Made by a program: the position numbers and the translations under genes. 64,000 nt of DNA, taken from a virus. The stretch's first letter is position 1, and each line of letters opens with the position of its first letter. A model generated the notes under the pieces. It was given only the letters and a program-made list of their open reading frames with translations, did not search any database and was not told the origin of the DNA. The stretch is taken from the IMG/VR virus record IMGVR_UViG_3300042389_001027, positions 32,001 through 96,000 of that record; one strand, written 5' to 3'. Below are positions 28,819-51,348 of the stretch, one piece after another.

Positions 28819-28838
28819 GATGATTGAGGTCAATCAAA

Positions 28839-29144
28839 ATGGCTAATACAGCAAAAGTTCTTTTTAGAGGAGCGGCTACAACTAATACAAATACTGTTTT
28901 GTATACAGCACCTTCCTCAACGTCTACAGTTGTAACGAATATTGTTGTTACAAATAATTCGTCTAGCCCAGCAACGTTTACCATTTCCCTAGATGGCGTG
29001 GTGCTCGCTCCAACTGTTGCAATCAGCGGTTACTCAATGACATCTCTTGACATCCGACAAGTACTTGCCACAACAGACACGCTCACTGGTGGGGCATCTA
29101 CTACGTCGGTTAACTTTCACATTAGCGGAATGGAAATTGCGTAA
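28839..29144 (+). CDS. small beta-rich virion protein
   Basis: LYTAPSSTSTVVTNIVVTN..ISGME; similar to 32157..32516. Confidence 0.6.
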   Translation: MANTAKVLFRGAATTNTNTVLYTAPSSTSTVVTNIVVTNNSSSPATFTISLDGVVLAPTVAISGYSMTSLDIRQVLATTDTLTGGASTTSVNFHISGMEIA

Positions 29145-31900
29145 TGGGTATTCAACAGTTCCCTATTGGTGACACAACGATTGAAGCAAACGAACTTCTT
29201 TACGACCCAGTAAACAAGTTACGTGTTTCAACACCACAGTCGCTCATTGACACCGACTTTGAGTACGGTACACAGATTTCAAAGTGGGAAAACTTGACTC
29301 TCACAGACAACCGACCTTTCGTTTACAATGCGCAAACACCATTAACAAATATCACTGGAGTTTCCCTGCCCAACCTGTCGCGTACCGTAACCGTAACTAC
29401 TGCTACCCCGCCAGCGGTTGGTACGCCAATCACGGTTACAGACACCCATCTTCCTATCGCTAACGGAAACTTTATTGTTGAATCAGTAAGCGCTGGAATG
29501 TCATTTTCCTATACTGCTCGTGCGGAAAACACCACGACTGTTACATCGCTTTTTGATTCCAACAAAACACAGTTTTTCCAAGGGGCTTTTTATACTGGTG
29601 CAGCAATTGGTGCCGCGCCAACAGTTTCCTACTCTGGAACAAAAGTCACTGTTACAACAACCACCCCACACGGTCTATCAATCGGAAACGAAATTGCCAT
29701 AACTGGCATAACAACAAGCGGTGCGAACCCACCAAACGGTGCTCATTTTGTCGCTGGCATAATCAGCGCAACGCAATTCTTTTACTACACATTCACTGCC
29801 CCAACAGGGACGCTGACAACAACAAGTGCCGTGGTTTATGCTCGCCCACAGGGGCAGTTCCTCCATCGCCCATTTGACGGTGGCGTTATCTTCTCAAGTA
29901 ACTCCACATCCAACTATCAGTCAGCAATTCGTCAGACACGTCGTTACTTCCGATACCAGTCTGGTAAAGGAATCCAGATGAGTTCAGGAACGCTCATCAA
30001 ACCATCTCTGCAACTTGAGTCCCTAACATCAGTTGGCACGCTTGTGACTGTACAAACGAAAGAAAAGCACAACCTTCAGCCTGGTTCAACAATTGATGTG
30101 TTTGGTGCAAACGAAAGCGCATATAACGGCGTATTCACTATCTACACGGTTACTGGTTACAACACGTTTACATATCAAGCACTTAGCACACCGTCTTCGT
30201 CAACTGCTTCTGGTCTGTATTACGCCAACATTAGTCAATGGTATGGGTGCTCTAACCGTATCGGGATTTTTGACCAGCAGAACGGAATGTTCTTTGAACA
30301 TGACGGTCAGGAACTTACTGCAGTAATTCGCGCTTCTACGTATCAAATTTCAGGACGTATAAGCGTTACTAATGGCTCTCCAAGTATCACTCAAACGAAT
30401 TCTTCTTTCCCAACTCGTTTCTCCAAGCAACTTGATATTGACGACTACATCGTCATCCGTGGACAGTCATATCGCATCATTGACATTGCTAGTGATACCT
30501 CCATGACAGTCAGCCCTGCCTACCGTGGCGCTACAGCAACCATGGTTATTGCCTCCAAGACGGTTGACAGACACTACCTTCAGTCTGAGTGGAATATTGA
30601 CAAAATGGACGGCACTGGTCCATCTGGCTACAACGCCGACTTCACCAAGATGCAAATGTTTTTCATTGACTACTCATGGTATGGCGCTGGTTCTGTACGT
30701 TTTGGATTACGTGGTACGGACGGAGAAATTAAGTACTGCCACAAAGTAGTTAACAACAACGTTAACTCTGAGGCGTATATGCGGTCGGGTAACTTGCCTG
30801 CACGCTATGAGTCTTCAACGGAGCCCCCGTACACAAAATTGTCATCATCTTTAACAGACGTTGCAACAAGTATGTCGGTCGTTTCAACTTACGGTTTCCC
30901 GCCAACAGGAACACTACTGGTGGCAAACAACCTGTATGGGTACGAATATGTTAACTACACGGGGAAAACGTCTACATCATTCACTGGTTTGACGCGAGCA
31001 CAAACTGGCGTTGCATCACTGGCAACAACCGTTGCTTCTGGACAGAACGTTTTGACAGTTTCTAGTACTGCACATTTGCAGGTTGGGCAGCGCGTATATG
31101 GTATCGCCAGTCCTGACGTTCCAGAAAACACTTTTATTTCTTCAATTGATTCGGGTACACAAATCTCTTTAAGTCAAGCAGTTACTGCAACTAACCCAAC
31201 ATTATTGTTTGCACCGATGAATGATGGAACAGCAAAGTCGTATACATATTCTTCAACTAACCCAGTTGCCGTAGAACTAGCGTGGCCGACCTATGCGCCT
31301 ACTATTTCCCACTGGGGCACATCGGCAATCATGGACGGTCGTTATGATGACGATAAATCTTTGTTGTTTACGTATGGTCAAACTACAACAACATCCATTC
31401 CATCTGGGCAAACATATTGTGTTCTTGCAATCCGCGTAGCACCGTCTGTTGACAACGGAACCTCAGGTTCATTTGGTAGTCGCGAATTAGTCAACCGCAT
31501 GCAGTTGATTCTTCGTGCTTTGGATATCACGACAACTACTTCTGGAGCAAACCTACTCATTACTGCAGTCTTGAATGGCACCCCAAGCGCTGGTGCAACA
31601 TGGATAAAACCAGCAACAGTCACATCAAGCCTTGCTGAGGTTGCAGATTATGCTGGAACTGCACGAACCATCTCTGGTGGAGAAACAACTGGTGGTTTCT
31701 TCGTAGGCACTGGCGCTAACTCAGTTGACTTAACAACAGTCCGAGACCTTGGAAACTCAATTCTTGGCGGTGGAAGTACAACGACTGCTGCCGCAATCTA
31801 TCCAGACGGTCCAGACACACTTCATATCATGGTGCGCAATCTAGGTGCTTTATCAGCAAACGTGTTCGCACGTCTTTCATGGACGGAAGCACAGGCGTAA
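29144..31900 (+). CDS. large virion structural protein
   Basis: KLRVSTPQSLIDTDFEYG, RQTRRYFRYQSGKG, IDYSWYGAG motifs of large-phage structural proteins. Confidence 0.75.
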   Translation: MGIQQFPIGDTTIEANELLYDPVNKLRVSTPQSLIDTDFEYGTQISKWENLTLTDNRPFVYNAQTPLTNITGVSLPNLSRTVTVTTATPPAVGTPITVTDTHLPIANGNFIVESVSAGMSFSYTARAENTTTVTSLFDSNKTQFFQGAFYTGAAIGAAPTVSYSGTKVTVTTTTPHGLSIGNEIAITGITTSGANPPNGAHFVAGIISATQFFYYTFTAPTGTLTTTSAVVYARPQGQFLHRPFDGGVIFSSNSTSNYQSAIRQTRRYFRYQSGKGIQMSSGTLIKPSLQLESLTSVGTLVTVQTKEKHNLQPGSTIDVFGANESAYNGVFTIYTVTGYNTFTYQALSTPSSSTASGLYYANISQWYGCSNRIGIFDQQNGMFFEHDGQELTAVIRASTYQISGRISVTNGSPSITQTNSSFPTRFSKQLDIDDYIVIRGQSYRIIDIASDTSMTVSPAYRGATATMVIASKTVDRHYLQSEWNIDKMDGTGPSGYNADFTKMQMFFIDYSWYGAGSVRFGLRGTDGEIKYCHKVVNNNVNSEAYMRSGNLPARYESSTEPPYTKLSSSLTDVATSMSVVSTYGFPPTGTLLVANNLYGYEYVNYTGKTSTSFTGLTRAQTGVASLATTVASGQNVLTVSSTAHLQVGQRVYGIASPDVPENTFISSIDSGTQISLSQAVTATNPTLLFAPMNDGTAKSYTYSSTNPVAVELAWPTYAPTISHWGTSAIMDGRYDDDKSLLFTYGQTTTTSIPSGQTYCVLAIRVAPSVDNGTSGSFGSRELVNRMQLILRALDITTTTSGANLLITAVLNGTPSAGATWIKPATVTSSLAEVADYAGTARTISGGETTGGFFVGTGANSVDLTTVRDLGNSILGGGSTTTAAAIYPDGPDTLHIMVRNLGALSANVFARLSWTEAQA

Positions 31901-31902
31901 TC

Positions 31903-32157
31903 ATGGCTATTGACTTTCCCGATACCCCCGCAACAAACGACACACACACTGATTCTGGTAAGACATGGAAGTACAACGGTTATGCGTGGGTACTACAAAC
32001 AATCCCAACCGCTCTTGCTAACGGGTCTATTGCTCTAACCCAACTTGCTCAGGGCGGAGCGACCACTGGACAGGCGCTTGTGTGGAGTGGCTCCGCATGG
32101 GAACCCCACAATCTGGTGCGAGATAATCTGATTAAGTTCTACATGGAGGTCATCTAA
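31903..32157 (+). CDS. small fibre-associated protein
   Basis: MAIDFP..P....WKYNG.AW; GQALVWSGSAWEP. Confidence 0.6.
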   Translation: MAIDFPDTPATNDTHTDSGKTWKYNGYAWVLQTIPTALANGSIALTQLAQGGATTGQALVWSGSAWEPHNLVRDNLIKFYMEVI

Positions 32158-32516
32158 TGGCTGTTACACAAAAACGGCTTGGCGGTCCGAGCCAGTTGAC
32201 GGCTTCAAGCGCCGTCTACTACACGACACCAATCAATACAACGACAATCGTCAAGCAAATCATTTTGACAAACACTACATCGTCATCCAAGACGGTAACC
32301 GTCCGCCTAAAGCCACTAAATGTGGCAGAAGAAGCAACACACGACATCATTAGTGGTATGACAATTAATGCTAACGAAACCATGGCATTTAACTGTTCGC
32401 TCGTTCTCAACAATAATGGTTCTACAGCAAACGCAACAAACAGTGACCAATTGACGGCACTGTGCAGTTCAGCAACTTCCGTCAACATTACGGTTGTAGG
32501 TATTGAAGAGGCATAA
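32157..32516 (+). CDS. small beta-rich virion protein
   Basis: YYTTPINTTTIVKQIILTN..VGIEE. Confidence 0.6.
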   Translation: MAVTQKRLGGPSQLTASSAVYYTTPINTTTIVKQIILTNTTSSSKTVTVRLKPLNVAEEATHDIISGMTINANETMAFNCSLVLNNNGSTANATNSDQLTALCSSATSVNITVVGIEEA

Positions 32517-33223
32517 TGGCTGGAATGGTTCGCTACCCGGCGTTGAACGCCATGGCGTCCTTCATTGACTCTCCCGATGCTGTTTATGGTACGGGCAATG
32601 ATGGAAGCGCAACAATGGATGGTTCATCCATTGTTATTGGAGTGACCCCGTCGTCAAATGTCTACACCATGGCACGAGACGTGTATTTTTACAATCTCAC
32701 CATAAATTCTGGAGTTCGCCTAAATCCAAACGGATATCGGGTATTTGTCAAGAATCAGTTAACACTCGGGAGTAGCGCAACAATCGGTTATACGACAGGT
32801 TTTGCTTCTGCTGGCTCTATTCAGCAAGGTGCCCCAGCAAACACTTCAGTTACGCATAGTCTTGGCGGGCAATCGCAAACAGCAACACGCACAACACCAA
32901 TTGCTTCGCTCGGTGGTTCCGAATACTTTCAACAACCATTACAAGCAATAGATGGATTCTCCATTACTGCTTCTGGCGGACCGACATTTTTGCGCGGTGG
33001 TGCTGGAGGCGTAGGTCAGGCAGGCGGAGGGGTAGTAATTCTTGCTGCACGCTATATCTCTGGACCAACATCTGGAAGCGCAACAATTTCTGCCAAAGCA
33101 ACATCGCCTGCTGGTGGAGGGGTAATCCTTATTGTTTCATCTGGGGCTGCACTTCCCGCAACTGTAACAACGGACGTAACTGGGTTCGCGGCTGGCACAG
33201 TTAACTACATGCAGTTGGTCTGA
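32516..33223 (+). CDS. glycine-rich virion protein
   Basis: YGTGNDG..NLTI..NGYRVFVKN..GGGVVIL; paralogue of the next gene. Confidence 0.65.
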   Translation: MAGMVRYPALNAMASFIDSPDAVYGTGNDGSATMDGSSIVIGVTPSSNVYTMARDVYFYNLTINSGVRLNPNGYRVFVKNQLTLGSSATIGYTTGFASAGSIQQGAPANTSVTHSLGGQSQTATRTTPIASLGGSEYFQQPLQAIDGFSITASGGPTFLRGGAGGVGQAGGGVVILAARYISGPTSGSATISAKATSPAGGGVILIVSSGAALPATVTTDVTGFAAGTVNYMQLV

Positions 33224-33224
33224 G

Positions 33225-35105
33225 ATGGCTGCTGTTGAGCGATACGGAACTCCAAGTCCAGTCCAGAGGGCTGGCAATGACTCGGTATATGGTAGTGGCG
33301 CATTAGGTAATGTCACCCTAAGTGCTGGGGAAACAGTCATGTCGCAAGATATGTACTACAACAATCTCACTGTCCCATTTGGCTCGTTTCTGAACACGAA
33401 TGGGTTTCGTGTTTTTGTTAAAAATACTTTGACATTAAATGGAATTATAGGCATTGCTACTAGTTCTGGTGTTCTTGCTCTTGAACCATCTCCTGTTGCT
33501 ACTGGGACAGTTGCTGGCACTACATCAAGTAACGCTATTACATACCGCATTGGCGGAAAAAGCGGTGGTGCGACAGCGGATGGTACCAGTCTTATCCCCA
33601 CAGGAATTTTATATTCGCTGGATGTGGCTACAAAAGGTTTGTTTATTGACCCAAACGACAACCAGCCCAAACGGCTAATTGGCGGTGCTGCTGGTACAAC
33701 TGGCAGTCAGGGAACAACCTTCCCTGCGCTGACCAATACCGATACATGGTCTGGTAAAACTGCTCCGACATCATGGCCGAGCCAATCAGGGAACCCTGGT
33801 TCTGCAGGGAACCCTGGTGGCGCTGGAGGAGCAGGTGGAGCAGGGAACCTAGGTGGTCTAGGAGGGCACCCCCCACATGCTCATACTGTTGGAGTGCCTG
33901 GTGGTAGAGGGAATGCAGGCAACTCTGGAAATCCTGGTGGCGCAGGAAATCCTGGTGGCGCAGGGAACCCGGGCAACCCCGGCACTGTTGGCAACCCCGG
34001 CACGGCGACTGGTGCCAATCCGAGTGTTGGTGGCGCTGGGGGTTCGGGCGGGCAAGGTGGCGGGGTAGTCCTAGTTGTAGCAAAAACTATTACTGGAACT
34101 GGAACTATTCTTTCATTAGGTATTTCTGGAACATCGGGTAGTTCTGGGACTACTGGTACTGGAGGTACGGCAGGGAACCCTGGTTCTGCTGGCAATACTG
34201 GCACCACTGGTACTACAGGCAATTTTGGTACTCTAGGCACTACAGGTAATCCTGGCAATACGATGCCTCATCGGTCAGACAATCCCACCCACGCCCATCA
34301 CCGAGTTTCATCTGGTCATACAAATTCACAGAACGGCGGCGGAGGGGGCGGTCATGATTCGGAACCAGGCAACGGTCCGCAAGTTCACCACGCTCACCTG
34401 AGTCAAGATAGGCACGAGCAGCATCGTGGTTCGCGACTTCATTTCCATATGCCTCACGGCGGGAACACTGTAGGTCATAACCCGCCTGTCGTTACAAGCA
34501 ACAAGCCATTAACGCACGGTCCTGGAACCGTTTTTCACAATCCTGCACACATTCACCATGCAGGACATACTCACAACCCTCACCATGATGCACCCCATGG
34601 GCATAACCACCATACGCATAACGACCATGGTGGCAGTTCTCACGGTCCTCACCATTTTGGTCCTCATCACGGTGCAGCAAACGGGCAAGGCAATGGCGGG
34701 TCGCACGCCTACTACTATTGGGCTGGACACCACGGAATTCAGCATGCGGGCGGTCCTCATTACCATGCCGCTGCAGGCAAACATATTGGCTCCCCGCACA
34801 CGCATACCCACTATGCGGGGGGTGCTGGAGGTACTGGAGGTGCTGCGGGTAATGCTGGCGCTCCGGGGACTGGCGGTTTGGGGGGAAATGCTGGAGTCGC
34901 TGGACCAGGTGGACTTGCAGCACCCGCACAACCGCAGGGCGGCACAGGTAAACGCGGTGGGGCGGGTGGAGGAGGCGGTATCATTGTGGTTACCGACAAC
35001 ACATCGCTAGGAAGTGTTAATACTAGTGTCGCTGCTGGTTTGACTGCTGACTCAGATTTCAATACAGCCTCATCAGGGTTTGTATACTTAATTCAGAACA
35101 CTTAG
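33225..35105 (+). CDS. Gly-X-Y repeat (collagen/polyglycine-II-like) virion protein with His-rich insert
   Basis: Long GNP/GGA/GTT triplet runs flanking a ~190-aa His-rich segment. Confidence 0.75.
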   Translation: MAAVERYGTPSPVQRAGNDSVYGSGALGNVTLSAGETVMSQDMYYNNLTVPFGSFLNTNGFRVFVKNTLTLNGIIGIATSSGVLALEPSPVATGTVAGTTSSNAITYRIGGKSGGATADGTSLIPTGILYSLDVATKGLFIDPNDNQPKRLIGGAAGTTGSQGTTFPALTNTDTWSGKTAPTSWPSQSGNPGSAGNPGGAGGAGGAGNLGGLGGHPPHAHTVGVPGGRGNAGNSGNPGGAGNPGGAGNPGNPGTVGNPGTATGANPSVGGAGGSGGQGGGVVLVVAKTITGTGTILSLGISGTSGSSGTTGTGGTAGNPGSAGNTGTTGTTGNFGTLGTTGNPGNTMPHRSDNPTHAHHRVSSGHTNSQNGGGGGGHDSEPGNGPQVHHAHLSQDRHEQHRGSRLHFHMPHGGNTVGHNPPVVTSNKPLTHGPGTVFHNPAHIHHAGHTHNPHHDAPHGHNHHTHNDHGGSSHGPHHFGPHHGAANGQGNGGSHAYYYWAGHHGIQHAGGPHYHAAAGKHIGSPHTHTHYAGGAGGTGGAAGNAGAPGTGGLGGNAGVAGPGGLAAPAQPQGGTGKRGGAGGGGGIIVVTDNTSLGSVNTSVAAGLTADSDFNTASSGFVYLIQNT

Positions 35106-35113
35106 GAGACAAA

Positions 35114-35356
35114 ATGCCTTTATTTGATGAAATTGACAAAAAACAGCGGTTGCAGATTCTTCGCGGAACGTATAAATCTTTGGAAATTGAACTTTTTGAA
35201 GTTTTAACGCGCCTTGGAGTTGACGCTGATGAATACGCATTTGGCGAAAATCCTGAATTTGCTGAATCTGTAGATAACTGGAACAAGCGTCGCGTTATTG
35301 AGTTAGAAACAACCTTGGCTACAATTAAGGCAAAAATTGACGCATTGGAAGCATAA
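35114..35356 (+). CDS. small helical protein (possible fibre chaperone)
   Basis: AGGAG RBS; directly follows the fibre gene. Confidence 0.5.
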   Translation: MPLFDEIDKKQRLQILRGTYKSLEIELFEVLTRLGVDADEYAFGENPEFAESVDNWNKRRVIELETTLATIKAKIDALEA

Positions 35357-35359
35357 ATA

Positions 35360-35779
35360 ATGCAAAGAGTGTTTTACGTTCCTGCATCAATGACTATTAG
35401 TACTGAACTGAGCGAACAAGCAGAATCGCTCGGTCTTTCTGTGATGCATGGGGAAAGTGCTCTATCACGCTACGTTGAATTTGACCGCGATGTAGCGCAG
35501 GCTATTTCTTTGCCTTCAGAAAAAATATGTCTTTTCTTTAATGAAGTTTCAATCATGCTTCACCAAAGCATTGAAGTAACTAATGATTTTGTTGATATGC
35601 GCGACGGTGTAACTCTAGTTTTGAACGGCTCAAAAATTATTGACCCGCTGATACTAGAAAAACACTATGCACGCTATGCGATTGAATGCACTGGGTACGG
35701 TGTTCAAGTGTTTGACATATTTGATAAATCTATGCGAGTATTGGAGCACGGTGAGTACTATGTCGTTAACCCTGAGTAA
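35360..35779 (+). CDS. hypothetical protein
   Basis: ORF in a tightly packed run. Confidence 0.5.
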   Translation: MQRVFYVPASMTISTELSEQAESLGLSVMHGESALSRYVEFDRDVAQAISLPSEKICLFFNEVSIMLHQSIEVTNDFVDMRDGVTLVLNGSKIIDPLILEKHYARYAIECTGYGVQVFDIFDKSMRVLEHGEYYVVNPE

Positions 35780-36347
35780 GCCAGCCCCCTGCATTTTTGT
35801 TTATGAAAACGCTCTCAAAGATGGCGAAAAGTTTATTTCTATGCTTGAAGAGCAGACTAATGACGAGTGGTCGCCGTTGTCATGGGATTATTCAAAAACT
35901 GGAAGTGGCACTGTTAGTGAATATCGTTCATCGCGCATATGTTCACTAATAGACATTACGCAACCTTGCCCCAGTACGCCTATTTCTGATTTGTTGAACA
36001 AATCCATTCTCAAAGACATAGAAACATGTCTTACCGACTATACGACCTACCATGGGATTGCTGCGCTTGTTGGCAATGAAGGTTGGATTGTCCTGAAATA
36101 CGAAGGGCACGCTCAGTACCGTACGCACTGGGACCACGCACCAGACAACACCAGAACTCTATCAATAGTTGCATTCCCTTATTCAACAGCAGAAGTTGGT
36201 GGAGAATTGACATTCCCTCATTTTGGGACAACGATTAAACCAAAAACAGGTTCAGTGATTATATTTCCATCAAACTTCCCTTATACGCACACGGCACACC
36301 CTGTTGAAGATGGTATTAAATATTCATTGGTTACATGGTTGAGGTAG
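35760..36347 (+). CDS. 2OG-Fe(II) oxygenase (prolyl 4-hydroxylase-like)
   Basis: LKY..HWD..RTLS..GGELTF..FPSNFPYTH..KYSLVTW (HxD...H triad). Confidence 0.88.
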   Translation: MSLTLSKPAPCIFVYENALKDGEKFISMLEEQTNDEWSPLSWDYSKTGSGTVSEYRSSRICSLIDITQPCPSTPISDLLNKSILKDIETCLTDYTTYHGIAALVGNEGWIVLKYEGHAQYRTHWDHAPDNTRTLSIVAFPYSTAEVGGELTFPHFGTTIKPKTGSVIIFPSNFPYTHTAHPVEDGIKYSLVTWLR

Positions 36348-36349
36348 CG

Positions 36350-36610
36350 ATGACTGACCCAGATTTACCAACCGATAAATTCGCATGGCTTGGCACCCCG
36401 CTTCCGCCAGATGGTATTGCCGCCCCTGAGGACAATCCAGTACCAATAGTCAGAGAGATATTGCCACCCAACCAAGTAACAGGGGCGGACGAAGGTCTTG
36501 GCATATTCAGGTGGCTGATGGCAGACGAGAATGAACGCCAAGAAACATTGTCAGGGTGTAGATTGCTTGACAACTTCGTTTACATGGAAATACCAAAGGA
36601 AGACGACTGA
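36350..36610 (+). CDS. hypothetical protein
   Basis: GAGG RBS; coupled ORF. Confidence 0.5.
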   Translation: MTDPDLPTDKFAWLGTPLPPDGIAAPEDNPVPIVREILPPNQVTGADEGLGIFRWLMADENERQETLSGCRLLDNFVYMEIPKEDD

Positions 36611-36837
36611 TGGCTATAGCATTTGACTACTCTGATAGTAATAATCATATTTTGGCTTTGACAGCGCAGGTTAAAACATTAATTGATGTTGACTATGATT
36701 CCGTTGATGCCACTAACGTTGAAGCATTCAGAGTTGCCGCAAAGGCACTGAATGAACCAGTGCGTAGCAAACTTCTCCATATGCTGAACTTCATTGTTTT
36801 TAATAGCCAAGTAAATAGCGTGTATGGAGATGAATGA
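36610..36837 (+). CDS. hypothetical protein
   Basis: Coupled ORF. Confidence 0.5.
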   Translation: MAIAFDYSDSNNHILALTAQVKTLIDVDYDSVDATNVEAFRVAAKALNEPVRSKLLHMLNFIVFNSQVNSVYGDE

Positions 36838-37580
36838 TGAGCGAAATTAATATTGTTACAGTCGGCAACGCGACACATCGCGTGAGTTCATTTTCTTGCC
36901 CTCCACAGTTGCCTTCTATTGTTGAGTTTAAAGATTTCAGCCGTTCTATCTATGCTCGCTTAACGGAATCAGATAAATTTGATTTACGTACTTCTTCGCG
37001 TTCTGAAGAGTTTCTTGCTTATGGCTTAGTCGGAGCCCCTGGTGGGGAAGATATTGCTCCAGTCGTTTGGAGTTCTCATGGGCAAGCAGAAATGTATGGA
37101 CGTTTATGTGGCGCAAAGAACGTTTTTATACATAGTGTTCCGTACGCTATTTATTTTGCGGCTCACAACTATGAGAATGTTTATGTTTTAAATTGTGCAT
37201 CAACACTCATTGCAGGTTCGCACGATACGGCAAGCGATGCCGAAATCACAAACGTGACCACGCTTTCATGGGATAATGCCTATAACAACATGCCCGAACT
37301 GGATATGGCTATCGTGATGTATTCACACATCTGTGCTGATGATTCGTTATTTGATGCAATCATGAACGCGATGAAGCCAAATGGCGTAGTTGTTATCCAT
37401 AACTCAAGCAACGGTGGCGCACTCTATGAGGTACTTGGGGACAAGAAGCCTTTAGACATGGCTGCAGAAGTTTCCCTTTCCGCCTTGCTACACAAAAAAA
37501 TTCTTGAAAGGGGCGATTTTTTGACGCAACATTTTCAGGGCTGGGTCTCCCACACTGTATGCGTTAAACTGCCATCATGA
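36834..37580 (+). CDS. putative SAM-dependent methyltransferase-fold protein
   Basis: LDMAIV..AMKPNGVVVIHN resembles class I MTase motifs; glycine-rich motif I is not evident. Confidence 0.4.
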   Translation: MMSEINIVTVGNATHRVSSFSCPPQLPSIVEFKDFSRSIYARLTESDKFDLRTSSRSEEFLAYGLVGAPGGEDIAPVVWSSHGQAEMYGRLCGAKNVFIHSVPYAIYFAAHNYENVYVLNCASTLIAGSHDTASDAEITNVTTLSWDNAYNNMPELDMAIVMYSHICADDSLFDAIMNAMKPNGVVVIHNSSNGGALYEVLGDKKPLDMAAEVSLSALLHKKILERGDFLTQHFQGWVSHTVCVKLPS

Positions 37581-39067
37581 ATAAGGAACATCAACCTATC
37601 AGTTTTGGGATTGTCGGCTCTGGAACAGCAGGGCTGATTTCCGCAATCATGCTACGACAGGCTTTTCCCCTGTCTAAAGTAACCATTGTTTCTTCAAGTA
37701 CCATTGGGATAGTTGGTGTTGGGGAGGGAAGCACTGAACATTGGCGCGAATTTATGAATTTGTGCGACATCCCACTTGAGCAAATGTTGGTCAAAACTGC
37801 TGCTACACACAAATATGGAATTCGTTTTGAGGGTTGGTCTGGCGCTTTCCCTAATTATTTTCATAGCGTTTCTGGCGATGAAGCAATTTATGGGTGGGGG
37901 CACTACCCAACATATGCTGGCATTTTTGAAAATGGGGACTCATTAACAAGCCAAACCAGCAGTATTGGTTTAGTGCAGAACAAAATTAAGCGCGAAAACC
38001 TACATTCAAACACTAACCAATACCATTTTGACACTTTCAAACTCAATAACTATTTTACTGAATTATGTTTCAGGCGCTCTGTAAAAATGATTGATGGGCA
38101 AGTCGCAGACATCACGCGAAATACTGAAACAGGAAATATCTCCAGCGTAATTCTTGATACTGGAAGTTCAGTAGAAGCAGATTTTTGGATTGACGCTAGT
38201 GGCTTCGCTCGTGTATTGATGAAAAAACTGGATGCTTCCAACTGGAACTCATTCTCCGACTATCTTCTTGTTGACTCAGCGATAGCCGCACCATCAGAAT
38301 CATGGGCAGAAGGAATACGTCCATACACAAGGGCTATTGCCAAAGATTCTGGCTGGATTTGGGAAATCCCAACACAAGAGCGGCGCGGTAACGGGTATGT
38401 GTACTCATCACAGTTTGTTTCCGATGATGAGGCTATTGCAACATTAGAGAAGCAAATCGGACCACTGTCTGTTTCGCCAAGAAGTTTCAAATTTGATGCA
38501 GGTCATGTCAAAGAGGTTTGGGTTAAAAATTGCATGGCTATCGGTTTGGCTGCTGCTTTTGTTGAGCCATTGGAAGCGACTTCAATCGGCAGCACTATTC
38601 AGCAGATGAAATATGCTATTCCGTATTTTGCATCTTTTGAACAAACCCACACAGCATCACAGAAGCATTACAACAAGTTATTCACAAGAATGATGGACAA
38701 TATCTTAACAATGATTCGTCTCCACTACATCTCGGATAGACGGGATACGCCATTCTGGGTTGCTTGTTCGGAAATGAAAATTAACGATTCACTTCAGGAA
38801 CTTCTTGACCTTTGGCAGGAAAGAGTTCCATGCCGAAATGACGTCGGGGGCATCAATGGGGAAATGTTCCATGCGCCTCATCTGTTTCACGTGGCTCAAG
38901 GGCAAGGCGTACTGAATGCAAAGTCCGCAACGTTGATGATTGACAATTTTAATCTTCGCAAGCAGGTTGAGTTAGATATCTCCAACCGTCGTCATGCTCG
39001 TTTCAATCATGAGTTGGTTGACCATCGTGAGTCACTAAATATGCAATTTGAGGATGAAATACTTTGA
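37577..39067 (+). CDS. flavin-dependent (tryptophan halogenase family) halogenase
   Basis: GSGTAG FAD motif, GVGEGS, ATHKYGIRF (catalytic Lys position), GWIWEIP (WxWxIP), FVEPLEATSIG. Confidence 0.92.
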   Translation: MNKEHQPISFGIVGSGTAGLISAIMLRQAFPLSKVTIVSSSTIGIVGVGEGSTEHWREFMNLCDIPLEQMLVKTAATHKYGIRFEGWSGAFPNYFHSVSGDEAIYGWGHYPTYAGIFENGDSLTSQTSSIGLVQNKIKRENLHSNTNQYHFDTFKLNNYFTELCFRRSVKMIDGQVADITRNTETGNISSVILDTGSSVEADFWIDASGFARVLMKKLDASNWNSFSDYLLVDSAIAAPSESWAEGIRPYTRAIAKDSGWIWEIPTQERRGNGYVYSSQFVSDDEAIATLEKQIGPLSVSPRSFKFDAGHVKEVWVKNCMAIGLAAAFVEPLEATSIGSTIQQMKYAIPYFASFEQTHTASQKHYNKLFTRMMDNILTMIRLHYISDRRDTPFWVACSEMKINDSLQELLDLWQERVPCRNDVGGINGEMFHAPHLFHVAQGQGVLNAKSATLMIDNFNLRKQVELDISNRRHARFNHELVDHRESLNMQFEDEIL

Positions 39068-39876
39068 GTTTACGGAAAATTGAAAAGTACAGCGATATCA
39101 AGGTTCCTGAAGGCAAAATTGTTATCGTTCCTTGGGATAATCGTCTTTTAGAACTTCCCCCATACACAAACGATAGGGCTCCTCTTCCTCAGTGGATTAA
39201 GGACGCCCCCACCACACAAGGTTCAATTAGGCGATGTGCGGCGACAATGGATTATGTCTCTTCTGGCATCACAATCCCTGCGTGGACTAATTTTCGCTTC
39301 AATAAAATTGAAGGTGAAGATTCATGGGGTTTTTCTTGTGACCAGTTTGATGGGCATGGAACAAATGGGTTTGAGCATTTCACGAATCAGCCGTTTGCTT
39401 TTGAGCAAACAGGCTCGTGCCCTATGACTAAGGTACGAGCAATGGAGAATGTTGGTTACCCAAAGTTAGTTAACCCATTCAGAATCATTACTGCACCAGG
39501 ATGGTCAACGATGATTTTGCCAGTTCTTTACGAACCATCGCCACATTATTCCGTTTTACCAGGAATCGTGAATACTGACTATTATCATGAATCAAACTGT
39601 GTACTTAATTTGATTGGCAAAGAGTCGTTCACTATTCCATGGGGTGCACCTTTGATGCATCTAATCCCAGTAAAAAGAAGCACGCTTGCGCACAGTGTTG
39701 AATTTCTTGACGAAAGTGCATTCAAGTATGTGATTGGTCGCGGATTTGGTTCTGGTGCCCTGAAACCCACTGGTAATGGCTGGTCTTCTAGCCGTCTTTA
39801 TCGTGCGTACAGATTTAGGCGTGATGCAGAACTTGCTGAAGATAGCAAGAAAACAACGTGGTGGAAAACTAAATGA
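39064..39876 (+). CDS. conserved phage protein (DUF6065/dUTPase-like beta fold)
   Basis: IRRC...D....G..IP.W; K..NPF.I.T.PGWS; LPGIVNTD; IP.G.PL..LIP.KR. Confidence 0.55.
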   Translation: MSLRKIEKYSDIKVPEGKIVIVPWDNRLLELPPYTNDRAPLPQWIKDAPTTQGSIRRCAATMDYVSSGITIPAWTNFRFNKIEGEDSWGFSCDQFDGHGTNGFEHFTNQPFAFEQTGSCPMTKVRAMENVGYPKLVNPFRIITAPGWSTMILPVLYEPSPHYSVLPGIVNTDYYHESNCVLNLIGKESFTIPWGAPLMHLIPVKRSTLAHSVEFLDESAFKYVIGRGFGSGALKPTGNGWSSSRLYRAYRFRRDAELAEDSKKTTWWKTK

Positions 39877-40568
39877 TTTTCCCTGCTGGCATCGGTGGCG
39901 GTATCGGTTACAAAGACAATGTTTTAAGTGATGCGCTATGTGCTGACATTGTTGAGTACGCAGAAACGCACAGCAACATGATGTACGAGGGTCCGACTCT
40001 TGGGGGACTCAACAAGCAGATAAAGAATTGCTACGATTTTTCTTTGTCCTATTATAGCGACTATGCAGAAAACGATGAACAACGCAACGAATTAGCAAAT
40101 TTCAACAATCTAGTATTTGACTCTTTTTCGCCTGCGTTAGAAGAATACTGTTCCTATTACGAGGGCTTGGAGCATTGGACAACAAGGTACGACACGGGGT
40201 ATCAGTTTCAAAAATACCCAGCCAACGAAGGGTTTTACAAACCTCATTGTGATGGTGGCGTGTATCTGACAGGCTCCACTGCCACAAGAGTTCTCGGTGT
40301 CGTTATGTACCTAAATACTGTGCCTAAGGGCGGCGGAACTAATTTCCCACTACATGATGTCACTATTGATGCGGTATGCGGACGTATTTCTTTCTTTCCA
40401 GCGAACTTCACTCATCCCCATGCTGGATTGATGCCTCTTTCTTCCCCCAAGTACATCATCAGTACCTTCTGTTACACTTTGCCAACCGCCCCCAGTGTTG
40501 ATGAGGCAGTAAATAAACTTTCCTTGAATTATGTTGAGGAAGTCAGCAAAACAGATGATGAAATCTAA
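39873..40568 (+). CDS. 2OG-Fe(II) oxygenase (prolyl 4-hydroxylase-like)
   Basis: QKY..PHCD..RVL..MYLN..GGGTNF..FPANFTHPH..KYI. Confidence 0.88.
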   Translation: MIFPAGIGGGIGYKDNVLSDALCADIVEYAETHSNMMYEGPTLGGLNKQIKNCYDFSLSYYSDYAENDEQRNELANFNNLVFDSFSPALEEYCSYYEGLEHWTTRYDTGYQFQKYPANEGFYKPHCDGGVYLTGSTATRVLGVVMYLNTVPKGGGTNFPLHDVTIDAVCGRISFFPANFTHPHAGLMPLSSPKYIISTFCYTLPTAPSVDEAVNKLSLNYVEEVSKTDDEI

Positions 40569-40610
40569 TTTCAACTCTTTACAACATACACACAACTACG
40601 GAGTGATAAA

Positions 40611-40793
40611 ATGACTGAGCAAGTAAACCCACAACTCATTATTGATGAACTGGTCAAGCGAGTACAATCGCTAACAATTGAGAACGTTGTCCTGTCAGCA
40701 AAGGTGCAAACATTGACAGACATTGTCAATGCTCTCAACCATTCACATGATGACGAGATGGTTTCAGTAATCGGAGAACCAACGGAGGAATAA
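40611..40793 (+). CDS. small coiled-coil protein
   Basis: GGAG RBS; heptad pattern. Confidence 0.55.
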   Translation: MTEQVNPQLIIDELVKRVQSLTIENVVLSAKVQTLTDIVNALNHSHDDEMVSVIGEPTEE

Positions 40794-40796
40794 CAG

Positions 40797-42578
40797 ATGC
40801 CCGGTGCAAACGTATTTGCCTACGATGGCACTGGGTATAAGCCGACCGACCGCTCTCAGAGTGCTGGTATCTTCGCAAGAGGAGCATCTCTGTCGGGTGT
40901 TATCTATGTCTACCAGTTGTCTAAGCCTGCATCAGTTACTGTCGCGACACAGATTTGGCAGGGATTCCCTCCCACGCCAAGCCAAGTTACATTCTCACAT
41001 GGAACTACAGGCACAGCACCGAACTCCACCAACAGAACCACTATCTCATGGACATGTGACAGCAGTGCGCTTTTGTCCAAATTTGAGATATACCAAAAAG
41101 TTGGAACTGGTTCTTTCGTGGCGCTTTCCACAACAATCGGTTCAGGAGTTCGTAGTTATGCAGTTGATTCCCATGCCGCAGGTACGTTGTATACCTACTA
41201 TGTTCGCGCCGTAGGAATATCTGGGTTAACCAGAAACGGTGCAGAAAACTCTTTCACTCTATCTGCACCAACCTTGACTGGCGTGTCGCTCGCTGAACTA
41301 TCTAAAACATCTTCGTCTGCTACATGGAGACTTACTGTTCCTGCTGGAACATTTCAGAAAGTTGACTGGTATCGGTCAACGGATGGCAGCACATTTGCAT
41401 ACAGCACTTCAACAACAATTGGTTCATCAGCAACATTCGTTGACCATACTTGGTCAAGTATTTCGGAGCGGACAACACGTTGGGTGAGGGCTGTTTTAAC
41501 CAACTACAGCAACCACGCCACTGGCAATACTTCATCGGCAGCAATCACAACAATAAACCAACCACCTGGCGCCCCATCAATCAGTAGTGCTTCCGCAGTT
41601 TCCGAATCAGACCCTGGTGTTGGCGGTGGGTACGGTACAACGGGGGAAGTACGTAAGCGAGTGAATGTTGCTTATTCGCTTGCAGGAGATAGCGATTACA
41701 AAAACCATACTCTTTATGTTTACGGCGACAATGGTGCTGGAACTGGACCGAGCGGATATGTAACCGAAATTACCCGCACGGATGGAGCCAACCGTACGGA
41801 AACTGTTACTGGTCTCATGCCGAGCACTCGCTATTGGTTCCTTTTGCGCCAACGCGACAACAACAGTGGTGAAACAGATAACTCTCAAGGTTGGCAAACG
41901 GCGGTCACTCAAGCAGTAATTTCACGTAGCCAACAAAATGCGTATACGTATTACAGCGCAAGTGGCGTGGTGGATGGAACGGCAGACGGTAACTATCTCG
42001 TTGACTCTGTATCAACAGTCCCTAGTGAAAGTACGTACTCTTCTCATTCACGTATGTACGACAATGACACTGGTAACTTTTGGGTATCTGGCACTACTAA
42101 CACTGTCGGTTCCCCAGACCCTGGTGGTATTGTCCGTATTCGTTTTGAAATGAGCGACGCGCGAGACAATTTTTGGGATTACTACATTCGCGGATTCAAC
42201 TTCTATTTACCGCAGTCACACAACACAGCGATTCAAGTTCGCGCAGGAACTGGTGGGGCATGGCTTGGCTCCGCAGTGAACTCTTCACTCACGGGAAACA
42301 GCGACCCATATCTGTATGATGCAGTTAACCCTTCTTCTGGTCAAGAAATTGTTGACTGGAGTGTTTACGTCGGCGTAGACGACCCTACTTTCCGTGTTCA
42401 TAATGGTGGAACTAACGGCGGAACCGCATATTTTGCGGCTCGTTTCTGTTTACGAAACATGAGAGCATATTCAGGTTCTTCTGTTTTGAGGGCTGGGTTC
42501 TCGGAATTGCAAGGCGTCTATGTTAAGTACCGCACAAGAGTTTCCAACTATGTTGCGGAGACTTACAGGTACTATTAA
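40797..42578 (+). CDS. fibronectin type III repeat virion/adhesin protein
   Basis: ISWT..YTYYVRAVG and GLMPSTRYWF FN3 signatures. Confidence 0.65.
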   Translation: MPGANVFAYDGTGYKPTDRSQSAGIFARGASLSGVIYVYQLSKPASVTVATQIWQGFPPTPSQVTFSHGTTGTAPNSTNRTTISWTCDSSALLSKFEIYQKVGTGSFVALSTTIGSGVRSYAVDSHAAGTLYTYYVRAVGISGLTRNGAENSFTLSAPTLTGVSLAELSKTSSSATWRLTVPAGTFQKVDWYRSTDGSTFAYSTSTTIGSSATFVDHTWSSISERTTRWVRAVLTNYSNHATGNTSSAAITTINQPPGAPSISSASAVSESDPGVGGGYGTTGEVRKRVNVAYSLAGDSDYKNHTLYVYGDNGAGTGPSGYVTEITRTDGANRTETVTGLMPSTRYWFLLRQRDNNSGETDNSQGWQTAVTQAVISRSQQNAYTYYSASGVVDGTADGNYLVDSVSTVPSESTYSSHSRMYDNDTGNFWVSGTTNTVGSPDPGGIVRIRFEMSDARDNFWDYYIRGFNFYLPQSHNTAIQVRAGTGGAWLGSAVNSSLTGNSDPYLYDAVNPSSGQEIVDWSVYVGVDDPTFRVHNGGTNGGTAYFAARFCLRNMRAYSGSSVLRAGFSELQGVYVKYRTRVSNYVAETYRYY

Positions 42579-42631
42579 ATCACTCCCAAATAAATAGTTT
42601 TATTCCTGCTACACTATAGTGGAGGTGTAGC

Positions 42632-44605
42632 ATGGGGAAATTTCTGCGCATAACACGCGCACTTATTTTTATACCTGTCGCCATAATGGCATGGTTCACC
42701 CCAACTGGTGCACGAGCCGCAACCCCCGGTCTCCAAATGACCGTTTACAACAACTTCGGCCACAACGGCTCGCCACCACTTCCCGAAGTCAGTGGACGAC
42801 CAATCGTTGGGACAACGACAGTTGGGAACGTAAACCAAGACTTTGATGCAAGCCCATACTTCAACATGTACGAGGACTTCATCGTCCAGTACGAAGGACA
42901 CGTCACATCGCCTATTGATGCCGATATCAGTTTCCTCCCACCAGCAGATGACGGCACAAAGTTATTCATAGACGGCGTGTTGGTTGACGATAACTGGGTT
43001 GACAAGGGCGGTGGTGCAAACCCAACTGAGCCAATCCATTTCAATGCTGGAGAATCCAAAACGTTCACACTTTGGTTCTATGAGAACGGCGGAGGAGCAT
43101 GGGTTGAACTTTATTGGAATTTAAACGGTGGGTGGGAAATAGTCCCAGAATCGGCATTCACCCAAGATTTAGTAACACCAGCGCCCCCATATCTAAATAC
43201 ACCGAGCAATGTGCAGGTGGTATCCGTAACAGATTCAAGTGTTTCTATTTCGTGGGATACTCCAGAACAGTCAAATGCTGATGTTGAGCGTTACGCAATC
43301 ATGTGGTCATGTGAAACCAACTGGGATGCCGCATATGTAATCTCCTCCTACACAACCGAGGTGACAATTAACGGAATTGACTCTGGCACATCGTGCATTT
43401 TTCAGGTCAGGGCAGATAATGACACGATTCCCGTGTATTCACAATATTCGCAGTCTGTAAGCGGAGTTACACAGACAACTACAACAACTACAACAACTAC
43501 AACAACTACAACGATTCCTGAAACTACTACCACAGAACCAGAAACAACTACAACGACAGAACCCGAAACTACAACTACTGAGCCTGAAACAACAGTTCCA
43601 GAAACAACTACAACTACTGAGCCAGAACCCGAAACTACGACTACAACGGAAGTAGAGGTTCCAGTTGGAACAACAACCCCAGAAGAAACAGTTGAAGAAA
43701 CGCTACCTGAACCAACAGAACCACCCGAAACAACGCCGCCGACGAGCGAACCAGAGGTAGACGTCCCACAAGATGTTCAAGATACCGCTGATGCAGCCGT
43801 TGATGAGATTTTCACGGCATCCACGAATATTGAAGAGTTGGCTGATGCTGTTGATGAACTTGTTGGAGAGGCTGAAACACCAGAGGAATTGGTCGCAGTC
43901 ATTGGGGCTCTTCTTGGGAAAGATTTAACCGAAGAGCAGTTTGATGCCGTTATTGATTCTGTGTTCTCTGAGCCTTTATCGGACGAGAACTTCACTGCTG
44001 CTCTTGAAGCAGTTTTTGAAGAACCACTCACAGATGAGCAGTTTGATGCTGTCATCACAGCAGTCCTTGATGAACCTATCTCCAATGAACAATTTGAGGA
44101 ACTTGTGAATGTTCTTGAGTCCGACTCGGTATCCGAGGAACAGGTTGTTGCTGCTGTTGATGAGATTATTCAGAATCAAATTTCTGAAGAACAGGCTGTT
44201 GACCTCGCAACGAGCGAAAAAGTCTTGCAAAGTATTGACGGCGAGCAGGCTACAGAAATCTTTGATGCTGTTGACATCTCGGAAATAAACCCTGAAGAGG
44301 CTGAACAACTTGTTGCGGCTGTTCAAGATGCCCCAACGGAAGTTAAAGAAGCATTTGAGGGCGAAATCAACATCTTTGAAGGCGCCGTTGACACCTATGT
44401 GCCGCTTGGCTCAACGGTGAGTGTCGGTACACGTCGTGTCGTAGTTGCTGCCGCTGGTGTATTATTTGTAGCACCGACTATTGCGGCTATACCTCCTACA
44501 GCCCCAATAAATGGTAGCGGTAATAATAATCCGACTCCAAATAATAGTGGTGCTGGGAGTGCTTCAATGTCCGTAGAACCACGCAGGAGGGTCAGAGGAA
44601 AATGA
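42632..44605 (+). CDS. secreted/membrane-anchored PA14 + FN3 protein with Thr/Glu/Pro linker and acidic helical repeats
   Basis: Signal peptide ending ARA; ADDGTKLFIDG..FYENGGGA (PA14); ISWDTP..FQVRADN (FN3); C-terminal hydrophobic segment. Confidence 0.75.
   Translation: MGKFLRITRALIFIPVAIMAWFTPTGARAATPGLQMTVYNNFGHNGSPPLPEVSGRPIVGTTTVGNVNQDFDASPYFNMYEDFIVQYEGHVTSPIDADISFLPPADDGTKLFIDGVLVDDNWVDKGGGANPTEPIHFNAGESKTFTLWFYENGGGAWVELYWNLNGGWEIVPESAFTQDLVTPAPPYLNTPSNVQVVSVTDSSVSISWDTPEQSNADVERYAIMWSCETNWDAAYVISSYTTEVTINGIDSGTSCIFQVRADNDTIPVYSQYSQSVSGVTQTTTTTTTTTTTTTIPETTTTEPETTTTTEPETTTTEPETTVPETTTTTEPEPETTTTTEVEVPVGTTTPEETVEETLPEPTEPPETTPPTSEPEVDVPQDVQDTADAAVDEIFTASTNIEELADAVDELVGEAETPEELVAVIGALLGKDLTEEQFDAVIDSVFSEPLSDENFTAALEAVFEEPLTDEQFDAVITAVLDEPISNEQFEELVNVLESDSVSEEQVVAAVDEIIQNQISEEQAVDLATSEKVLQSIDGEQATEIFDAVDISEINPEEAEQLVAAVQDAPTEVKEAFEGEINIFEGAVDTYVPLGSTVSVGTRRVVVAAAGVLFVAPTIAAIPPTAPINGSGNNNPTPNNSGAGSASMSVEPRRRVRGK
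43475..43512 (+). repeat. 9-bp tandem repeat (ACAACAACT)n encoding poly-Thr
   Basis: About four in-frame copies. Confidence 0.85.
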
Positions 44606-44784
44606 AATACGTCAAAAAACTCGTGAATGAAGGTCACTCGCTTGCTTGGACGTTGGCTGGAACGGCACTCGTTCTCATCACTCTTTCTGGCGACACCAAA
44701 TCAAAAGGTCTTTGGATTAGCGGTATAGCCCTTGGCGCACACCTGATTGGCGTCCTTGTCAAGAAAGACGAAAACAATGAATAA
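44602..44784 (+). CDS. small two-TM membrane protein
   Basis: Two hydrophobic helices; ATGA overlap. Confidence 0.6.
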   Translation: MKYVKKLVNEGHSLAWTLAGTALVLITLSGDTKSKGLWISGIALGAHLIGVLVKKDENNE

Positions 44785-46180: not shown

Positions 46181-46431
46181 CAATCATTTCTAATGTTCTT
46201 CTGCGAATCGTCGCAGTGTTCGCAGCATCAGGGCTTGGCGTTATCGGCGCTGGCGCAATCGCTGGAGTAAGCCTCTGGAAAGCATGCTTTATGGCTGGCA
46301 TGGCTGGCGTAGCAACTGTCGTAGAAGGTCTTGCTCGCGAATTCCTTGATGACGGAAAACTTGACGCTGACGAAATTAACGGTGTTTTCAATAAGGTTGA
46401 CAAAAAAGCGCAACCGCAAGTTGCTGAATAA
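46177..46431 (+). CDS. holin-like membrane protein
   Basis: Two TM segments, DDGKL..EIN..F tail; directly upstream of the endolysin. Confidence 0.6.
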   Translation: MTIISNVLLRIVAVFAASGLGVIGAGAIAGVSLWKACFMAGMAGVATVVEGLAREFLDDGKLDADEINGVFNKVDKKAQPQVAE

Positions 46432-46503
46432 TAGGATTGACTAGTTTGGTATAATGGCTATGGAGCAAAAAACTCCGCACCCAGTATCAAACAAAGGAAA
46501 ATC

Positions 46504-47307: not shown

Positions 47308-47387
47308 ACTAAACCGAACGACACGCTTCTTTTGGATGCAGTCATTTTTTCAAACTTAGCCATAACAACCTGATGTAGTCTTACCTT

Positions 47388-50649: not shown

Positions 50650-50721
50650 GACCATGAACAAAGCGCCGCATTCTCCCTCCACGTACCCAAATATGGGAAT
50701 GTCCTATATATGGAGAGACCT

Positions 50722-51339: not shown

Positions 51340-51348
51340 CACCCCTGT

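Follow-up and report, generated by a model that had tools for sequence, protein, structure and literature searches.

The DNA considered here, called the window, is a stretch of 64,000 nucleotides (bases 32001-96000) of IMG/VR virus record IMGVR_UViG_3300042389_001027, a 128,618-bp genome with direct terminal repeats that is rated complete. Its tail-fibre region holds a run of + strand genes at 32157-40568, in which a pair of fibre-like paralogs, the longer one with a histidine-rich insert, is followed by two 2-oxoglutarate (2OG)-Fe(II) oxygenases, a flavin-dependent halogenase and a protein of predicted dUTPase-like fold. We found that the core of this run is a conserved module, which suggests, but does not prove, that the virus chemically modifies its own tail protein. 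The features of the run, with their positions in the window, are as follows.

32157..32516, + strand: g119, a small protein of the phrog_20100/phrog_1276 kind (PHROG matches).
32516..33223, + strand: g235, the short paralog, a predicted beta-solenoid of 235 amino acids (aa).
33225..35105, + strand: fib626, the long paralog, with an N-terminal domain and C-terminal strands in common with g235.
33789..34262, + strand: three Gly-X-Y (G-X-Y) runs of fib626 (aa 189-215, 223-261 and 299-346); a conserved GGGVVLVVAK strand separates the last two.
34230..34853, + strand: the His-rich block of fib626, aa 336-543.
35114..35356, + strand: g80, a small protein after the long paralog.
35360..35779, + strand: g139, a small gene just before oxyA.
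35760..36347, + strand: oxyA, a prolyl 4-hydroxylase (P4H)-type 2OG-Fe(II) oxygenase; its open reading frame (ORF) is open from 35667, and the likely start is at 35760.
36335..36837, + strand: g91 and g75, small ORFs.
36834..37580, + strand: mt248, an accessory ORF.
37577..39067, + strand: hal496, a flavin-dependent halogenase of the tryptophan-halogenase family.
39064..39876, + strand: d270, a protein of predicted dUTPase/dCTP-deaminase fold with an N-terminal extension and a C-terminal helix; phrog_7084.
39873..40568, + strand: oxyB, a second P4H-type 2OG-Fe(II) oxygenase.

PHROG matches identify the genome as that of a contractile-tailed myovirus that is not T4-like. The large terminase, sheath, tube, tail chaperone, tape measure, baseplate wedge and several fibre-like proteins were matched in the window, followed by an endolysin, and the terminase is ~44% identical to those of Methanothermobacter and Gordonia phages. 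The genes of 32157-40568 overlap or lie 1-8 nucleotides apart. Sheath, tube, tape measure, baseplate and fibre PHROGs lie upstream of them, and a PA14+fn3 protein and the endolysin downstream. An earlier note on this DNA had described, at 33225-40568, a tightly packed same-strand run inside the structural region, with a 626-aa Gly/His-rich protein, two oxygenases, a halogenase and small ORFs; all of these ORFs were found at those positions, and Pfam and PHROG place tail and fibre genes on both flanks. Homologs of g119 lie upstream of the g235 homolog in many loci, and g119 paralogs follow other fibre genes, e.g. at 28824-29144.

The AlphaFold model of g235 has a predicted local distance difference test (pLDDT) score of 89.7. 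The solved structures nearest to it are beta-solenoids (bactofilin, adhesins, autotransporter passengers and antifreeze proteins); because they match at Z <= 7.9, they indicate a common arrangement only. In BFVD the fold matches viral 'collagen-like' proteins of Pandoravirus and Orpheovirus and uncultured phage proteins, with E from 3e-10 to 6.5e-7. The N-terminal 64 aa of g235 are 44% identical to the N-terminus of fib626. Judged by eye, fib626 appears to keep the plan of the short paralog, with Gly-rich/G-X-Y stretches and a His-rich low-complexity insert placed between the conserved strands. Its 626 aa include 147 Gly, 48 His, 44 Pro and 47 Asn, with 9 GNP and 15 G-x-P triplets and G-X-Y runs at aa 189-215 (9 triplets), 223-261 (13), 299-346 (16), 533-565 (11) and 572-586 (5). 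The Pfam Collagen family (PF01391) matches aa 299-345 at a borderline 27.3 bits (cut-off 27.2); it passes the cut-off in 7 of 46 long paralogs and reaches E <= 1e-3 in 16 of them. Searches of 50,697 phage records by blastn and tblastn gave no useful match to fib626 or the region, and the low-complexity filter may hide fib626. The long paralog is probably a virion protein.

The His-rich block contains 45 His, 42 Gly, 17 Pro and 16 Asn in 208 aa, carries YYYW at aa 496 of fib626 and ends in a conserved HYAGG boundary motif (boundary stretch: ...HTHTHYAGGAGG). A block of this kind is present in all 62 distinct long paralogs examined (11-105 His each, in 61-366 aa), and because of this recurrence it is not a chance feature. 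Long paralogs range from 331 to 1042 aa across loci, and every locus pairs a His-poor short paralog (0-2% His in relatives) with a long paralog that has the His block. Trp, which the earlier note had pointed out within YYYW, is missing from the block in many homologs. A metal needle of the T4 gp37 HxH type was rejected as a specific claim, since HxH spacing is not enriched over shuffled sequences in the 62 blocks (median z 0.7, z > 2 in 3 of 62; 300 shuffles each).

Some long paralogs carry further domains. In the closest relatives (L007:4401-7529, also L004 and L005) the protein is 1042 aa long, with an extra N-terminal CBM_4_9 domain (27.3 bits, cut-off 25.9), as an adhesin would carry; we count this domain in favour of a fibre function. 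Those of L011 and L099 give a sub-threshold Lcl_C match.

The genes around the His-rich protein travel together. Halogenase relatives that are 43-91% identical were found at 47 IMG/VR loci, and clustering at 90% identity gave 50 loci, or 51 with the window. Among these 51, the paralog family is present in 48, d270 in 48 (directly after the halogenase), the oxygenase family in 46, g80 after the long paralog in 40, g139 in 39 and mt248 in 11. When loci were anchored on g235, 60 of 70 had the halogenase; in the 10 that did not, the contig breaks off 0-2.6 kb past g235, short of where a halogenase would be expected. The earlier note had suggested checking whether the His-rich insert and the enzyme cassette co-occur in related phages, and the linkage is strongly borne out by both counts (48/51 and 60/70). 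The conserved module, which is new here, thus consists of the short and long paralogs, g80, g139 with an oxygenase, the halogenase and d270.

A control was anchored on the terminase, for which 80 loci were kept of 177 relatives and the 20 largest records were searched. The halogenase was found in 5 of these records, the g235 family in the same 5, and neither in the other 15. Fourteen of the 15 are fragments, which end 4-12 kb after the baseplate gene where a baseplate gene is present. The remaining one, G003, is 97% complete; it lacks the paralog pair, the halogenase and d270, and seven Gly-rich ORFs of 0-1% His occupy its fibre region. The N-terminal domain also has eight distant relatives in contigs of metagenome-assembled genomes; these are Gly-rich with 0-2% His, and no halogenase, oxygenase or d270 lies near them in the available DNA, which for four of them extends ~10 kb downstream.

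Such linkage may mean only that unrelated neighbours have been held together by phylogenetic inertia, as a late-gene block co-inherited in one phage lineage. This would agree with the facts that every module-bearing locus was reached by way of a module-gene homolog or of a terminase 76-97% identical, that joint absence is documented by a single near-complete genome, and that promoter and terminator scans of 28500-47500 stayed at shuffled expectation (23 and 22 sites, against 24.3 and 19.4 in shuffles). It agrees less well with the behaviour of the block. Flanking fibre genes, e.g. g918 and g593, are not conserved around the halogenase loci and are replaced while halogenase identity falls to 43%. 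In L031/L033 and L034/L035 the genes have stayed linked although their order has changed, and two complete genomes, G001 and G002, have everything from g235 through d270 inverted as one piece with respect to the baseplate genes. Overlapping stops and starts point to translational coupling, and the covariation of oxyA with proline content described below argues against independence. We consider inertia alone quite unlikely as the explanation.

The two oxygenases were recognized by PF13640, oxyA at 6e-11 and oxyB at 4e-8. Their HxD motifs are H123-W-D125 in oxyA, counted from the start at 35760, and H125-C-D127 in oxyB, which has a downstream THPH; the earlier assignment of two 2OG-Fe(II) oxygenases with HxD..H is upheld. 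In 38 relatives of oxyA, all of which match PF13640, H123, D125 and H177 are invariant and K187 is nearly so. The ten best matches of the profile of these relatives in PDB are all peptide- or protein-acting prolyl 4-hydroxylases (1e-11 to 6e-4), including those of B. anthracis (1e-11), PBCV-1 (2.6e-9) and Chlamydomonas, Pseudomonas PPHD, human C-P4H and P4H-TM. By this profile comparison the oxyA family is closest to the peptide-acting prolyl 4-hydroxylases. In the loci checked, g139 is directly upstream of the oxygenase gene. Neither g80 nor g139 has a family match in Pfam or PHROG; a second g80 copy follows d270 in some loci, and no fusion of g139 to a longer protein was found, which is weak evidence.

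If oxyA acts on the long paralog, its target is not likely to be of the collagen type. The earlier note had pointed to Pro in the Y position of the G-X-Y runs. G-x-P-G sites number 11 in fib626 and 0-17 across the 62 homologs, with none in 7 of them, and Pro is followed by Gly at a median fraction of 0.23 where Gly itself has a frequency of 0.195, so there is no excess over composition. Together with the few passes of Pfam Collagen (7/46), this lack of family-wide X-Pro-Gly enrichment led us to reject collagen-type Y-position hydroxylation as a conserved mechanism.

The His block itself is a better candidate. Its Pro density has a median of ~8 per 100 aa, against ~4 elsewhere in the long paralog. 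In the 44 of 47 loci that have an oxyA-type gene, the block has 4.6-17.3 Pro per 100 aa. In the three that lack one (L092, L027 and L077) it has 1.0, 1.7 and 2.2. These three form two separate, well-supported lineages in the halogenase tree, beside oxyA-bearing neighbours, the nearest of which have 8.0-10.7 Pro per 100 aa. Both independent losses of oxyA therefore coincide with loss of Pro from the His insert, a coincidence that is suggestive and no more. The presence of g139 gave no significant contrast in Pro density (p 0.14); a difference emerges only on dividing the loci by whether they have an oxyA-type oxygenase. An oxyB-type gene is present in 18 of 47 loci, and the median Pro-Gly fraction there is 0.35, against 0.23 in the other 29 (Mann-Whitney p 0.0066, uncorrected for relatedness and largely due to one clade), with p 0.087 for G-x-P-G counts; this is a hint that oxyB is linked with a higher Pro-Gly fraction. 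As separate observations, the Pro-poor His blocks of L027, L077 and L092 are Cys-rich (4-6 Cys), with CC pairs in L077 and L092, and all three loci carry an mt248-like ORF.

The protein hal496 matches PF04820 at 2.2e-103 over aa 11-452. Among PDB entries it matches 30 halogenases at E <= 1e-10, with 9luq at 2e-59, the BrvH-type 6frl at 1e-55 and VirX1 (6qgm) at 4.5e-48, and the alignment with 9luq shows GWiWeIP and EPLE. The motifs GxGxxG, K79, GW.WEIP and EPLE vary little or not at all across 48 relatives, with G14, G16, G19, K79, W260, E263, P265, E330, P331 and E333 invariant; the available part of PMC8407142 names GxGxxG, WxWxIP, the catalytic Lys and the EPLE Glu as halogenase motifs. The whole-length family match and these catalytic motifs leave the earlier description, a flavin-dependent halogenase with the full motif set, in place. 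Identity to phage homologs is ~30-39%.

A clade nested in the halogenase tree (L028, L040 and L041) has the His-rich pair replaced by a PF21722 Gly_rich_2 fibre-tip protein. Its neighbourhood (L041:8241-12610, and likewise L040 and L028) consists of the Gly_rich_2 protein, a weak P4H-type oxygenase (PF13640), the halogenase, a sulfotransferase-like ORF (E 3.7e-4) and an Asp/Asn beta-hydroxylase. The clade has thus kept neighbours of the protein-hydroxylase type (PF05118 at 4e-12), and we count this in favour of protein tailoring.

The enzymes may instead form a small-molecule or glycan pathway, an auxiliary 'moron' cassette whose product would be a metabolite bearing halogen and hydroxyl groups or an altered polymer of the host surface. 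Adjacency to the fibre gene would then come from an insertion-tolerant region and inheritance, and the His-rich protein would be unmodified, perhaps metal-binding. A cyanophage cluster of ten genes with an amino-acid halogenase, 2OG-Fe(II) hydroxylases and methylases is read in this sense in the available part of PMC7824862, as secondary-metabolite or capsule decoration, and the closest solved halogenases, including VirX1 and one of BrvH type, act on free aromatics in vitro according to the portions available of PMC8407142 and PMC7754283. The halogenase of T4-like phages has PhyH-type oxygenases as its partners and is not near such fibres. A GT1-family glycosyltransferase (PF00534, 1.9e-17; L022:16207-17274) lies ~3.5 kb downstream of the halogenase in 13 of the 51 loci, and the nucleotide-enzyme fold of d270 would also suit such a pathway. 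In the 17 ORFs at 29144-44605, however, Pfam and PHROG revealed no carbamoyltransferase, HAD (haloacid dehalogenase) phosphatase, carrier protein, non-ribosomal peptide synthetase or polyketide synthase, or transporter. A pathway of this kind would account neither for the joint gain, loss and inversion of the His-rich insert and the enzymes nor for the fall in Pro content of the insert where oxyA has been lost, and the nearest solved relatives of oxyA act on peptides and not on small molecules. We regard it as unlikely.

A further member of the module is d270. Its model, 270 aa built from an alignment of 43 relatives, has a pLDDT of 87.8, and the core is a dUTPase/dCTP-deaminase barrel. The top 22 VIA matches all belong to the dUTPase superfamily (Z 9.7-5.7), and Foldseek gave 95 matches at E <= 1e-3, of which those listed are dUTPases. 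As modelled, d270 thus folds as a member of the dUTPase superfamily. Family profiles say little about it: 0 Pfam families match at E <= 10, PF00692 was seen on 1 of 120 d270 relatives among the matches listed, and TIGR00576 is weak (E 0.075). The DUF6065-like label (PF19541) that the earlier note had given to this ORF should be dropped; DUF6065 occurs in just 11-30% of the members of the ESM Atlas clusters neighbouring d270, by automatic cluster names. By eye, d270 has the stretches IVNTDYYH and GRGFGSG, which we take to be like motifs III and V of dUTPase, and many invariant polar residues. A weak relative (22% identity over 68% of the query) stands just after nrdA/nrdB in the T4-like cyanophage S-RIM4 (L127:7872-8666), a neighbourhood that hints at a nucleotide-related role for the wider d270 family.

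These features raise the possibility that d270, the oxygenases, the MTase-like (methyltransferase-like) protein and the halogenase together make or process a modified nucleotide. PF00692 finds nothing at E <= 1 in the whole genome, i.e. no canonical dUTPase, and the P4H-domain genes of phage Syn9 were once suggested to be DNA-repair enzymes in the available text of PMC2984593. The oxygenases, however, are of the P4H type and not of the AlkB or TET/JBP type (Tet_JBP is matched by 1 of 38 relatives, E 0.006), and where motif III has its catalytic Asp, the d270 family has Asn or His in an alignment made by eye. The operon that holds the module is one of late fibre genes, and the module is linked to the His-rich protein. 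We therefore consider a nucleotide or DNA cassette very improbable. None of the readings accounts for d270.

The other accessory genes are less constant. No Pfam or NCBIfam family matches mt248, and its 11 aligned relatives have no GxGxG loop; from the earlier MTase-like call there stands an ORF, present in a minority of loci, that possibly has a degenerate class-I methyltransferase fold, with weak leads from ESM Atlas (0.91), a PDB profile (E 0.38) and Methyltransf_12 (2 of 11 relatives, E 0.04). The small ORFs g91 and g75 were considered as precursors like those of ribosomally synthesized and post-translationally modified peptides and were rejected as core parts, being conserved in the closest relatives only. 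Proteins of 238 aa (21 loci) and of 96 aa (24 loci; one member is hydrophobic) recur downstream of the halogenase.

Taken together, we favour the reading that the region encodes a tail-fibre protein together with its dedicated tailoring enzymes, as a conserved, self-contained module of an uncultivated myovirus lineage, and we give this reading a probability of roughly one half. The gene content, folds, catalytic motifs, strict linkage, block inversion, joint absence and the covariation of oxyA with proline are observed; that the long paralog is a virion protein and the substrate, which of its residues are modified and to what end, is inferred. During late expression oxyA, probably with g139, would hydroxylate Pro, and possibly other residues, in the His-rich insert; from the covariation and the profile matches this is the best-supported step that we infer. 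The halogenase, with reduced flavin from the host, would place halogen on one of this insert's electron-rich side chains, of Tyr, Trp or His; by analogy with halogenated His-rich proteins, halogenation of the long paralog is plausible. Further steps may be added or assisted by d270 and by the optional oxyB, mt248 and glycosyltransferase, and the modified long paralog would then be built into the tail-fibre apparatus. Metal cross-linking and 'hardening' of the fibre are analogies.

Several points weigh against this reading. On the side of the substrate, the covariation of oxyA with proline rests on two independent events, and the halogenase gives no contrast at all, being present wherever the His block is. 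The block has no conserved Trp (0-9 per block). Its sole conserved aromatic site is the [Y/W/F]-x-G-G block boundary (Y 48, W 6, F 1 of 62), and the same position is aromatic in the short paralog too (F 28, W 6, Y 1 of 43), so the boundary aromatic may be purely structural. We know of no flavin-dependent halogenase that acts on a full-length structural protein, and the nucleotide-enzyme fold of d270 fits no protein-tailoring step. On the side of the linkage, all anchored loci come from one viral lineage, so that synteny could reflect inheritance and not function, and G003 is the single genome informative for joint absence. The paralog family is found in no cultured phage: the single match among the 50,697 phage records is an environmental contig, over 24% of g235. 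As a further control, five T4-like cyanophage and pelagiphage genomes were used, four chosen for their halogenase and one for the weak d270 relative. The g235 family is in none of the five (0/5); their halogenases sit among metabolic genes or between terminase genes, and the weak d270 relative likewise lies among metabolic genes, beside nrdAB. Because the fibre family is absent from these five, fibre tailoring is not an idea general to all phage halogenases. The reading of the cyanophage cluster as metabolite or capsule decoration, in the part of PMC7824862 available, also tells against it.

Some features of the window lie outside the module. Directly upstream of the cluster, at 29144-31900, is a 918-aa virion structural protein that is ~44% identical over 99% of its length to a T4-like cyanophage protein (S-PM2 p173 and others); because the phage itself is not T4-like, unrelated myoviruses seem to exchange genes of the fibre region. 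A 657-aa protein at 42632-44605 may be a mucin-like surface adhesin of the virion: its PA14 and fn3 domains are followed by an extended tract of Thr and PETTT-like repeats, by helical repeats of acidic character and, at the C-terminus, by a hydrophobic stretch. A PAPS (3'-phosphoadenosine 5'-phosphosulfate)-reductase-like gene stands directly before a ParB-like gene at 5322-7027, a pairing that, from other phages, suggests DNA modification or partition functions. A strong local shift in composition at 50001-52000 (GC skew -0.248, AT skew +0.350) adjoins a switch of gene orientation from + to - at ~52 kb. No tRNA genes were found in the window.

Phage halogenases and the 2OG-Fe(II) oxygenases of aquatic phages have been without an assigned natural substrate since the first cyanophage genomes, and the module names an adjacent candidate. 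In the portions available of PMC1079782 and PMC2984593, phage prnA is treated as a non-functional or speculative antibiotic gene and the P4H-domain genes as possible repair enzymes. In the literature searched, with most subscription journals outside its scope, no description of a fibre-linked halogenase or prolyl-hydroxylase module was found. We put forward only tentatively, as a rather doubtful proposition, that a virus here hydroxylates and halogenates one of its own virion proteins by means of enzymes, with the His/Pro-rich insert as the natural substrate, which would be the first such case. If this is true, halogenases of the VirX1 kind and orphan phage 2OG oxygenases would gain their first natural protein substrate, and protein tailoring would have a new accessory enzyme in dUTPase-fold d270. 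Phage-host recognition would have a new layer, in which virion fibres are modified enzymatically after translation, and the module would be a source of peptide- or protein-acting halogenases. If the tailoring reading fails, one must still explain why a His-rich fibre protein is so strictly linked with these enzymes.

Among known systems, VirX1 (cyanophage Syn10, PDB 6qgm) and the BrvH-type enzymes share the Pfam family and catalytic motifs (GxGxxG, K79, WxWxIP, EPLE) with hal496. They are encoded by a phage or a metagenome and have no known natural substrate as far as the available parts of PMC8407142 and PMC7754283 state; the former describes VirX1 as an iodinase that forms a trimer, has a large, open active site and lacks a gene cluster around it. 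Unlike VirX1 and the T4-like phage halogenases examined, hal496 belongs to a fixed module that also has a His-rich fibre-like protein, a P4H-type oxygenase and d270. The P-SSM2-like cyanophage cluster (Iyer et al. 2021, PMC7824862, in the part available) resembles the region in having a halogenase, several 2OG-type hydroxylases and methylase-like genes. It differs in having carbamoyl transferases, a HemK-like methylase and HAD phosphatases, none of which is in the 17 ORFs here, and in that same part it is not described as tied to a fibre.

The Gly-rich phage fibres Pam3 gp24 and S16 gp38 have Gly-rich motifs in their receptor-binding parts, and neither a His-rich insert nor linked enzymes are described for Gly-rich or collagen-like phage fibres in the available parts of PMC9608196 and PMC1079782. 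The long paralog shares G-X-Y runs with the collagen-like phage fibres, whereas the core fold of the paralogs is a beta-solenoid like that of viral 'collagen-like' proteins and not the TNF-like fold with polyglycine lattice of the Gly-rich fibres. A metal-binding His motif of a phage fibre is known from the HxH iron needle of T4 gp37, which is likewise high in His, but HxH is not enriched in the His block. In Nereis jaws a His/Gly-rich protein occurs together with halogenated residues; the likeness of the jaw proteins to the long paralog is in composition only, i.e. high His. Chloroviruses provide a precedent for a viral P4H alongside Pro-rich repeat proteins. The peptidyl P4Hs of B. anthracis (5hv0/3itq), PBCV-1 (5c5t), Chlamydomonas (2jig) and Pseudomonas (PPHD, 4iw3) are the best solved matches to the oxyA profile (1e-11 to 2.6e-6), and the HxD...H triad and a conserved basic residue are common to them and oxyA, with low sequence identity. 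The candidate substrate of oxyA differs from theirs, being the His-rich insert and not collagen-type X-Pro-Gly, and a small partner gene, g139, precedes oxyA.

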